Positions 1 through 1,550 of a stretch of DNA of 1,550 bases are shown in pieces (position 1 is the stretch's first letter; every line of letters starts with the position of its first letter). Made by a program: the position numbers and the translations under genes. This DNA comes from Escherichia coli (GTDB lineage Bacteria; Pseudomonadota; Gammaproteobacteria; Enterobacterales; Enterobacteriaceae): NCBI RefSeq assembly GCF_003334355.1, contig NZ_QOWP01000086.1, one strand, 5' to 3'. The notes below the pieces were generated by a model. That model was not told where the DNA came from. It was given only the letters and a program-made list of their open reading frames with translations, and did not search any database.

Positions 1-1550
1 GATGGCCACGGGATTGGTGCGCCGACTGGGTAGCTTTCTGGTGGAAGATTTTTCGAGGTATAAACTTCTGCCCAGTCTTCCTCAAAACCATAGCCATCTC
101 TTGAGGAACGGTAGAACAGACCTCCATTTCTGTAATGTGCCTTCATCTGCAAGGTCCGGCAACTTCCGACTCCGGTATAGAAGTTAACCAGAATATAGGT
201 GTCGCCAGAGCGGGTGACATTGTAAGCGCCTGATTCGGCATTCCAGGGAACACCACCATCCGCATCGGCATATGTATCCGTTGCCCTTCTGGCAAAAGCA
301 GCCACATGCGCGGCGGTTAAAGTGATATCAGTAGAACCATCAAATGGAACACCGGATATTTTTCTTGCAGTCTGAAGTTTTGTAGCAGTTGCAGCATTAC
401 CAGTGGTGTTCTGATTACCCGTAGTGTTTACACCTGGAAGGTTAATATTTGCAGAACCGTCGAAAACAACTCCACCGATAGATCTTGCCGTCTGCAATTT
501 CGTGGCTGTACTTGCATTACCATTCAATGAACCAGTTAATCCACCTGTAACAGACAACGGACCTGAAACTGTTCCTCCGGTTGTTGGCAGTGCTCCAATA
601 TCTGATGGTGTAGGTTTCTGATGTGAGCTATACATCGTATAAACAACACCATAGGTAACGCTGGAAGGCTTACTCGCTGAATATGTTGGCGAGGTATAAA
701 CAGAAACTGACGCATTTGCAGTACAATCCCAATGGATATTTACACTCGTCGCATAATTGCCAATCTCAACGTAAATATCATATGTATCGCCGGATGTGTT
801 GATCCAGGCGAAATTCGTTAATCCGACGGCTGTACGCTTCCACAAAGCCCCGGTAATTCCTTTGGGGTTTCCATTGCCTGCTCGTAGAACCAGTTCTGAA
901 ATGCCTGCCTGATGTGGGGAACCGACGTTGTAACCAGCGCCACCAATCAATGCGATGTAAACGATGGAACTCGCTTGTGGCATGGTAACCGTAGCCAGTT
1001 TGAACCACCCAGCCCCGCCAGAGAAAGACATCGTTACTGAATTTAAAGTACCAATATCTTTCGGCGTTAATGTTATATCCGCAGTCAGTGCTTTTCCGTT
1101 AACTTTTCGGTTAGATGGCACCCTGCTATTCGCATTGTCATTGGCTGCTTTAACTGCTTTTGGCGTTGCGGCCAGCGATTCACTGGTGCTATCAACAGCA
1201 CTGCTAAGTTTCACAACACCTTTAGTTGTAAGGCTTGCGTCTTCCATCGCAACTGCACCGGCAATCTCTTCAGCACGATCAGCAGCAGCTTCCGCACGGG
1301 TCGCAGCGGATTCAGCAGTAGTTTTGCTCTGAGATGCTGCCGTCGCACTGCCTGCCGCCTCTGTTGCTTTCGTGGATGCCGTCGTGGCGCTGCCCCGCGC
1401 TGCTGACGCCTGTCTGGTCGCCTCATCTTTTGAAGCAGACGCCGATGATGCCGATGACGCCGCCGAACTGGCTGACGATGCGGCTGCCGTTTTTGAGGAT
1501 TCTGCACGGGTTTCCGACGCTTTCGCGTTCGTTTCGGATGTCTTCGCTGC
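1..1550 (-). CDS. Phage/prophage side tail fibre protein (lambdoid Stf-like), internal fragment; both ends lie outside the window
   Basis: Minus-strand frame with codons at + 1550..1548 down to + 5..3 is open for all 516 codons. This frame is absent from the ORF track, consistent with no in-window stop. Translation begins AAKTSETNAKASETRAESSKTAAASSASSAASSASSASASKDEATRQASAARGSATTASTKATEAAGSATAASQSKTTAESAATRAEAAADRAEEIAGAVAMEDASLTTKGVVKLSSAVDSTSESLAATPKAVKAANDNANSRVPSNRKVNGKALTADITLTPKDIG and ends ...SKNLPPESYPVGAPIPWP. The Ala/Ser-rich rod, the SESLAATPKAVKAA motif, the KLQTAR..FDGS..I.L repeats and the GAPIPWP motif are all characteristic of enterobacterial side tail fibre proteins as I recall them. 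Family assignment is from memory, not a search. Confidence 0.9.
3..23 (-). other. GAPIPWP junction motif at the window edge
   Basis: The last seven complete codons of the in-window translation read G A P I P W P (minus-strand GGC GCA CCA ATC CCG TGG CCA). As I recall it, this is the first part of the GAPIPWPSD motif shared by lambda Stf-type and other tail fibre proteins; the expected following residues lie beyond + position 1. Confidence 0.7.
318..398 (-). repeat. Tail-fibre repeat unit 2 (protein-level repeat NAATATKLQTARKISGVPFDGSTDITL)
   Basis: Residues 385-411 of the translation; same TATKLQTAR-x-I-x-GV-x-FDGS-x-x-I-x-L pattern as unit 1, 40 residues downstream of it. Confidence 0.8.
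438..518 (-). repeat. Tail-fibre repeat unit 1 (protein-level repeat NASTATKLQTARSIGGVVFDGSANINL)
   Basis: Residues 345-371 of the translation; matches unit 2 at 20 of 27 positions. Confidence 0.8.
531..1031 (-). other. Unassigned central domain of the fibre (about 165 aa), possibly a beta-rich module
   Basis: Residues 174-340: MSFSGGAGWFKLATVTMPQASSIVYIALIGGAGYNVGSPHQAGISELVLRAGNGNPKGITGALWKRTAVGLTNFAWINTSGDTYDIYVEIGNYATSVNIHWDCTANASVSVYTSPTYSASKPSSVTYGVVYTMYSSHQKPTPSDIGALPTTGGTVSGPLSVTGGLTGS. Composition is rich in G, T, S, V, Y and W with alternating hydrophobic residues; I cannot assign a named motif from sequence alone. Confidence 0.4.
1143..1172 (-). other. Conserved tail-fibre motif LAATPKAVKAA
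   Basis: Residues 126-136 of the translation (SESLAATPKAVKAAND). As I recall it, the (S/T)ETLAATPKAVK motif recurs in lambdoid and related enterobacterial tail fibre proteins. Confidence 0.7.
1248..1550 (-). other. Ala/Ser/Thr-rich low-complexity segment of the fibre (putative N-proximal shaft region)
   Basis: Residues 1-101 of the in-window translation are dominated by A, S, T with scattered K/E/R (e.g. KTAAASSASSAASSASSASAS, TRAEAAADRAEEIAGA). The DNA here is visibly more GC-rich than the rest of the window, about 65% in one hand-counted 60-nt block versus about 38-45% in blocks further 5' on the + strand. Confidence 0.75.
1440..1457 (-). repeat. Short tandem 9-nt repeat (2 units) encoding SSA-SSA within the Ala/Ser-rich segment
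   Basis: Minus-strand codons TCA TCG GCA / TCA TCG GCG; + strand reads cgccgatgatgccgatga at 1440..1457. Confidence 0.6.

Follow-up and report, generated by a model that had tools for sequence, protein, structure and literature searches.

Why are two conserved motifs of a phage tail fibre, ATPKAVK and GAPIPWP, separated by 375 residues in the Escherichia coli locus studied here, when only 147 aa lie between them in the side tail fibre (Stf) of phage lambda, reconstructed as a protein of 774 aa? The locus is represented by a stretch of 1,550 nucleotides, analysed over its whole length and hereafter called the window. A previous sequence-only reading had estimated the interval between the motifs at about 370 aa (residues 137-509) and proposed a considerably shorter spacing in reference fibres. 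It took the interval for a possible inserted or exchanged module, perhaps an acquired cassette that changes fibre length or receptor specificity. The shorter reference spacing was right, and the estimated extent was off by no more than a few residues (aa 135-509, nt 24-1148). The content of the interval was also as described, comprising a domain not covered by Pfam, two repeats with a period of 40 aa, and an aromatic segment (Table 1).

The analysis presented below indicates that the interval very probably forms the distal part of the shaft in a trimeric side tail fibre of the lambda type, organised as a chain of three modules (M2, M3, and M4) that was built by repeated recombination. The feature is a case of textbook tail fibre mosaicism, which is already known, and the protein itself is already present in RefSeq. 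The exchange of tail fibre modules at conserved joints has been on record since the early 1990s, and engineering makes use of it.

Identity of the gene and module map

Frame 0 of the minus strand is open over the whole window (516 codons without a stop), versus 14-26 stops in each of the remaining five frames. Plus-strand open reading frames (e.g., 964-1332, 122 aa) were taken for antisense artefacts of the Ala/Ser-rich frame. The window shows a 99.7% nucleotide match, with a single amino acid difference, to the gene of WP_210833249.1 from E. coli EC2341, a protein labelled in RefSeq as "prophage tail fiber N-terminal domain-containing protein". The Pfam domains precomputed on the full-length protein of 1075 aa are PF08400, PF07484, and PF03335, the last two being listed without coordinates. 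PF08400, the prophage tail fibre N-terminal domain, is located outside the window and is present in the matched 1075-aa protein; together with the position of the gene before tfa, and with PF07484 and the His-rich PF03335 repeats accompanied by GAPIPWP at the window edge, it identifies the protein as an Stf. The N-terminal region of the full-length protein (aa 1-135) is 90% identical to lambda Stf and 99% identical to StfR, the side tail fibre encoded by the Rac prophage of strain K-12 (b1372, 1120 aa). In EC2341, the locus consists of J-side genes, a lom remnant, stf (1075 aa), and tfa, whose start overlaps the stop of stf, and the order lom-stf-tfa is common to lambda, K-12 Rac (stfR-tfaR), and PhiR30_1.

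Within the window, the Pfam scan detected Phage_fiber_2 alone and nothing for M2-M4, the NCBIfam scan of the 516 aa detected no family, and the Rfam scan of both strands gave no match. The Phage_fiber_2 unit, M1, aligns with positions 1-41 of the 42 in the model (i-E 1.1e-18); neither of the two M3 repeats matched this same PF03406 profile. The proximal shaft, M0, is 91-98% identical at the amino acid level in StfR and other Stf representatives, and 58% identical in lambda. Since the N-terminal shaft is Ala-rich, the difference in G+C content between the interval (41-52%) and the upstream region (58-66%) mostly tracks amino acid composition, and the low G+C of the interval was rejected as a sign of foreign origin.

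Table 1. Features of the window, with positions in nucleotides and in residues of the window's translation.
Feature	Window position	Strand	Residues	Description
ORF	3..1550	-		Open at both ends; residues 357-872 of the 1075-aa lambda-type side tail fibre (Stf)
M0	1254..1550	-	1-99	Ala/Ser/Thr-rich low-complexity proximal shaft, common to lambda Stf and StfR
M1	1113..1235	-	106-146	Phage_fiber_2 repeat unit (PF03406, Pfam), carries ATPKAVK
ATPKAVK	1149..1169	-	128-134	Left joint
M2	585..1112	-	147-322	Central all-beta domain, predicted beta-sandwich
M3	306..584	-	323-415	Gly/Thr-rich linker and two shaft repeats, 40-aa period
M3 repeat core 1	438-521	-	344-371	GNAsTATKLQTAR...
M3 repeat core 2	318-401	-	384-411	GNAsTATKLQTAR...
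M4	24..305	-	416-509	Aromatic-rich domain with homology to the penultimate Mu S' domain
GAPIPWP	3..23	-	510-516	Right joint and start of the C-terminal module

Spacing of the motifs and frequency in E. coli

The spacing of the motifs was surveyed after searching the Stf N-terminal domain against 1.84 billion cluster representatives and taking the best 150. Among these 150 relatives, many carry ATPKAVK and few also carry a GAPIPWP-type motif; therefore, the C-terminal half is itself exchangeable. In the fibres containing both motifs, the spacing ranges from 147 to 506 aa. Lambda Stf occupies the lower end, followed by P0134 (155 aa), P0129 (182 aa, counted from its third ATPKAVK), P0263 (261 aa), P0147 (263 aa), the window protein with its representative P0126 (375 aa), K-12 StfR (416 aa), and the fibre of the P1-like phage Ro157c2 (506 aa). 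The supposition that the window protein is unusual for its family is at odds with these values and with the organisation of StfR, in which ATPKAVK occupies exactly the position that it has in the full-length query (residue 484) and is followed in the same order by a variable central domain, a fibre repeat, an aromatic domain, and GAPIPWP.

Frequencies refer to 5426 complete E. coli genomes and to matches spanning no less than 80% of the query. The whole window was found in 397 genomes and the cassette containing M2 in 557, with 173 places on plasmids, while the StfR-type central cassette was present in 1315 genomes and the lambda-type short interval in 584. At an identity of at least 95%, the lambda-type interval was recovered in only 97 records. 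The window protein is present in approximately 7-10% of complete E. coli genomes, and the window architecture is about as common in this species as the lambda-type one. In line with this, a homologue search with the full-length protein was saturated by E. coli proteins of 1075 aa at 99% identity. Thus, both the genome counts and the spacings show that the short interval of lambda is not the norm and that the architecture of the window is a common variant. This carries little weight as a discovery, and its use is to put on record that the 147-aa interval does not represent the family.

The state of the prophage in EC2341 raises the question of whether the gene is a non-functional relic, whose architecture would have no present function. 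This prophage is decayed, as its genes for terminase, tail assembly, and lom are truncated and J is absent, and the fibre may therefore never be assembled in that host. However, the frame of 1075 codons shows no interruption and is conserved at the 99% level across more than 100 protein clusters and in hundreds of contigs, tfa is also intact, and the same modules appear in the INPHARED records of phages phi458, Cyrano, and CMS-2020a. Moreover, stf genes of defective prophages also act as donors to infecting phages by recombination (PMC3945230). A relic is, hence, quite unlikely.

Homology breakpoints at the joints

Homology between the window and its relatives breaks off sharply, the breakpoints delimit modules with definite boundaries, and these modules are distributed independently of one another. 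In the blastn comparison with lambda stf, homology stops at gene nt 1469 (window nt 1150), in the last codon of ATPKAVK, and is back at gene nt 2596 (window nt 23), in the first codon of GAPIPWP. Ungapped nucleotide comparisons anchored on the motifs gave the same picture, as identity to lambda changes from 44/60 to 19/60 across the left joint and from 14/60 to 53/60 across the right joint; at the right joint with stfR, it changes from 27/90 to 70/90. Lambda Stf (Ur-lambda; UniProt P03764, PMC11338833) shares with the window protein the Ala/Ser-rich shaft, the Phage_fiber_2 unit with ATPKAVK, and the C-terminal His-rich repeats. In contrast, its residues between the motifs (LDSPALTGTPTAPTA... 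plus a helical segment) are unrelated to those of the window and include no M2, M3, or M4. As lambda has its own unrelated sequence between the motifs, the interval is a replacement rather than an insertion. Of the two options initially considered, an exchanged segment, non-homologous to that of lambda and bounded exactly by the motifs, is thus borne out, whereas an inserted one is not.

A different pair of breakpoints was found with K-12 stfR and PhiR30_1, in which homology stops at gene nt 1487 (window nt 1132, aa 139) and is back at gene nt 2218 (window nt 401, aa 384), in the second repeat. Therefore, StfR shares with the window the last repeat, M4, and the junction, and differs in the central domain; neither M2 nor the first repeat of the window is related to its residues 496-780, and the first 95 aa past GAPIPWP are 99% identical. 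Altogether, internal breakpoints against relatives are located at window aa 139, 384, and ~397-404. The DNA extending from the second repeat across M4 up to the junction is 89-91% identical to that of the P1-like phage Ro157c2YLVW and the Nonagvirus 9g. Modules M0-M3, in turn, are 96-98% identical in nucleotide sequence in phi458 and in Cyrano, a phage of 108 kb, both of which have different downstream parts.

These data bear directly on the proposal that the whole interval is one cassette, gained in a single acquisition, that changes receptor specificity. When lambda alone is considered, the interval does behave as one block bounded by both motifs, and the alignment to the profile phrog_295 spreads 515 query residues over only 297 profile positions, which also speaks for a single cassette. 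Nevertheless, other relatives have their breakpoints within the interval, and M2, M3, and M4 each occur elsewhere without the others. Receptor recognition, moreover, maps past GAPIPWP, and there the full-length match of the window protein is 93% identical to lambda Stf over the first 95 aa after GAPIPWPSD. In fibres of the lambda Stf and T4 gp37 type, the main receptor determinant is C-terminal, downstream of GAPIPWP, and acts with Tfa or gp38; Montag in 1989, and Hendrix and Duda in 1992, both listed in the references of PMC3945230, are said to have placed receptor recognition in the C-terminal part of such fibres. A single acquisition with this effect is accordingly very unlikely.

The central domain M2

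M2 is characterised by a conserved NTSGDxYDIY motif and is followed by the linker KPTPSDIGALP. Matches to this module were obtained by tblastn in 296 phage records. Homologues were located in the middle of the fibre in the T4-like gp37 of vB_EQ1 (residues ~777-928 of 1177), the T5-like fibre of Kenya-K18 (residues 304-465 of 1071), the FelixO1-like fibre of HY02 (residues 485-624 of 847), Sb24 of ST64B (residues 131-292 of 520), and the SSU5 fibre (residues 471-599 of 1260). In the Stf representatives P0129 and P0146, as well as in vB_EQ1 gp37, M2 is found without M3 and M4 and is joined straight to P(P/V)GAPIPWPSD. Indeed, the M2 homologue of vB_EQ1 gp37, which is 48-49% identical, leads directly into PVGAPIPWPSD, the 95 aa past this junction are 80% identical to those of the window's protein, and a Tfa-type assembly gene comes next, but gp37 lacks the Stf N-terminal domain, M3, and M4.

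No meaningful match to M2 was found in PDB sequence searches, performed with the single sequence and with the profile of alignment A1. The AlphaFold2 model obtained from the nine sequences of A1 is all-beta over residues ~27-165 (mean pLDDT 69.9, pTM 0.67), and its top matches among predicted viral structures were gp37-type fibres, tail fibres, and EPS depolymerases. Likeness was also found to WceF of Pantoea stewartii (PDB 6tgf) and to Acinetobacter phage tailspikes (6c72, 6e1r, 8oq0, and 5w5p), at approximately 10-14% sequence identity; unlike fibres, all of these are beta-helix glycanases. WceF has an eight-stranded jelly-roll sandwich located C-terminal of the beta-helix (PMC7949094). Judging from size and strand content, this jelly-roll may be the domain that the M2 model matches, the match being given with no aligned ranges. 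M2 is a widespread building block of fibres and tailspikes that has no solved close relative.

M2 could be conceived as a lateral carbohydrate-binding knob making a second glycan contact with the O-antigen, the capsule, or the LPS core, although such a role seems unlikely. Somewhat less likely still is the wider notion of M2 as a portable glycan knob of lambda-, T4-, T5-, and FelixO1-type and phage-plasmid fibres, which would provide a second sugar contact independent of the tip. If this were true, the combination of M2, M3, and M4 would tune reach and dual-receptor specificity, beyond fibre length.

Shaft repeats and aromatic domain

The two repeat cores of M3 are identical in 21 of 28 aa, yet in only 53 of 84 nucleotides. 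No direct repeats exist at the DNA level in the window, and the fibre repeats are visible at the protein level only. A total of 384 phage records contain the repeat unit, among them T4-like phages infecting Escherichia or Acinetobacter as well as P2-like, P1-like, and Pseudomonas phages, and M3 occurs without M4 in P0143 and SSU5. The PDB sequence search for M3 gave no meaningful match.

M4 stands out by its content of W, Y, and F residues (16% versus 0-2% in M0, M1, and M3). Residues 417-510 of the window's translation match residues 323-415 of the solved Mu(-) fibre, PDB 8ju3 (76.1 bits, domain i-E 3.1e-20); no match to the collar/tip part of 8ju3 was seen. Mu S also contains a Phage_fiber_2 unit (PDB 5yvq, residues 105-156), with ATAKAVK in place of ATPKAVK. 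Relatives of M4 are present in 224 phage records. Identity amounts to 44-51% with P2-like H, Mu, and P1/P7 S, or to 42-51% when FelixO1-like fibres are counted too, and rises to 83% in Nonagvirus 9g, 96% in the fibre of P1-like Ro157c2, and 99% in StfR, the last three having M4 without M2. Mu S/S', P2 H, and P1/P7 S belong to contractile-tail phages, attach to the baseplate by other N-terminal parts, and have no M2. Thus, when the sub-segments of the interval were searched separately, their relatives were found in different phage lineages, as had been anticipated from the sequence.

Proposed assembly and origin of the interval

We propose that the protein trimerises, its N-terminal domain anchoring the fibre to the tail, and that the Ala/Ser-rich region, M1, M2, M3, and M4 would follow one another as segments of the shaft. 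Accordingly arranged between the conserved Phage_fiber_2 unit with ATPKAVK and the start of the C-terminal module at GAPIPWPSD, M2 would be a knob folded as a beta-sandwich, M3 would contribute two short repeats of the shaft, and M4 would act as a pre-tip domain of the Mu/P2/P1 type. The part past GAPIPWPSD, outside the window, would fold with the downstream Tfa chaperone and bind the receptor. By analogy with the build of lambda Stf, T4 gp37, Mu S, and P2 H, the interval would set the length and geometry of the fibre. M2-M4 would, in consequence, probably serve as spacers, although a contact of one or another of these modules with the cell surface is conceivable.

The combination of modules very probably arose as tail fibre genes from different phages recombined repeatedly, with crossovers presumably taking place at short conserved coding stretches, namely ATPKAVK, the GNAxTATKLQTxR repeats, and GAPIPWPSD. 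Conserved splice points of this kind would allow distal parts to be swapped, and homologous recombination is the probable mechanism. Ancient stf exchange between unrelated phages has been ascribed to invertases (PMC3945230), and in the present locus the joints could be the work of site-specific DNA invertases (Pin/Gin/Cin family) instead of homologous recombination at coding motifs. Such an origin is compatible with the frameshifted recombinase gene found just downstream of tfa in EC2341, the only gene of this type nearby, with the location of pinR downstream of tfaR in K-12 Rac, and with the presence of the M4 homologues of Mu, P1, and P7 inside an invertible segment (G/C). However, the breakpoints are situated at conserved coding motifs with 73-88% nucleotide identity on the shared flank, as homologous recombination predicts, and homologous recombination of lambda with Rac and Qin across stf-tfa has been demonstrated experimentally (PMC3945230). 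A gix/hix/cix-like pattern, a weak probe for crossover sites, had no match in the window with up to 3 mismatches, nor in the 13.5-kb locus with up to 2. The invertase origin is, therefore, highly improbable.

Engineered fibres also lend support to recombination at these joints as a process that works, since functional chimeric Stf proteins have been obtained by fusions at R393 and S528 of lambda Stf (PMC11338833). R393 is located 8 aa after ATPKAVK and S528 5 aa before GAPIPWP; thus, the engineered fusions use the same two joints. The module map obtained here locates one joint after ATPKAVK, one inside the GNAxTATKLQTxR repeat, one at KPTPSDIGALP, and one at GAPIPWPSD, and, as a map with exact joints, it could help in designing Stf chimeras.

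Fibre segments shared across phage types

The stretch running from the second shaft repeat through the aromatic-rich domain M4 into the junction shares 89-91% DNA identity among the prophage gene of the window, the P1-like phage Ro157c2YLVW and the Nonagvirus 9g, which looks like the product of a fairly recent exchange between phage types. For transfer between temperate and virulent phages, stf is the documented example that PMC3945230 highlights.

In gp37 of the T4-like Escherichia phage vB_EQ1, a homologue of the central all-beta domain M2 is joined without a gap to PVGAPIPWPSD, followed by a module with 80% identity to the Stf of the window over 95 aa, and the next gene is of the Tfa assembly type. 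In this arrangement, a T-even phage has a lambda-Stf-like distal half.

Coordinates of the features discussed
Feature	Source	Position	Strand
Second repeat-M4-junction stretch	P1-like Ro157c2YLVW	L012:3501-3915	
Second repeat-M4-junction stretch	Nonagvirus 9g	L013:3501-3894	
gp37 and the Tfa-type gene after it	vB_EQ1	L005:1161-5273	
M2 ending VVYTMYSSHQKP	window	aa 308-322, nt 585-629	
M4 ending EVYTSKNLPPESYP	window	aa 495-509, nt 24-68	
Antisense ORF, 122 aa	window	964-1332	+
orf206b, annotated 206-aa 'hypothetical protein'	lambda	L003:1248-1868	-
stf	PhiR30_1	L002:1933-5326	
'Side tail fiber protein' CDSs (annotation)	PhiR30_1	1933-3336, 3735-5096, 5099-5326	
Prophage with best-matching stf copy	E. 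coli EC2341	L001:969-4868	
TIR-reverse transcriptase gene	E. coli EC2341	L001:9190-10794	

Domain endings, repeat number and annotation

The C-terminal strings of M2 and M4 in the window are alike, and the M2 ending in other fibres (VYSLYTPSEQFYPP, QVYMMYSDAQIPYPV) abuts GAPIPWP directly. The final strand preceding this junction may be a structural element common to both domains.

The Stf representative P0129 (881 aa) carries three ATPKAVK motifs (residues 379, 423 and 467) within residues 379-473, N-terminal to M2, with a 44-aa spacing consistent with tandem Phage_fiber_2 units. Thus, the number of these units is likewise variable among Stf proteins.

Long antisense ORFs face the Ala/Ser-rich shaft in both the window and lambda; both are most likely side effects of a GC-rich frame of Ala codons, and not genes. 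The annotation of the PhiR30_1 stf is split into three CDSs, suggesting frameshifts or stops comparable to the frameshift present in the stf of lambda PaPa.

State and cargo of the EC2341 prophage

The EC2341 prophage has decayed. Truncations affect lom, the tail assembly gene, the terminase and a hypothetical gene that is also frameshifted, and J is wholly absent. Both stf (1075 codons) and tfa are still intact. Approximately 1 kb downstream of tfa, where the prophage ends, lies a gene annotated as 'TIR domain-containing anti-phage reverse transcriptase', with a frameshifted recombinase gene on one side and a DinI-like gene on the other. This defence gene thus occupies the place beside the tail fibre genes where cargo is usually found.
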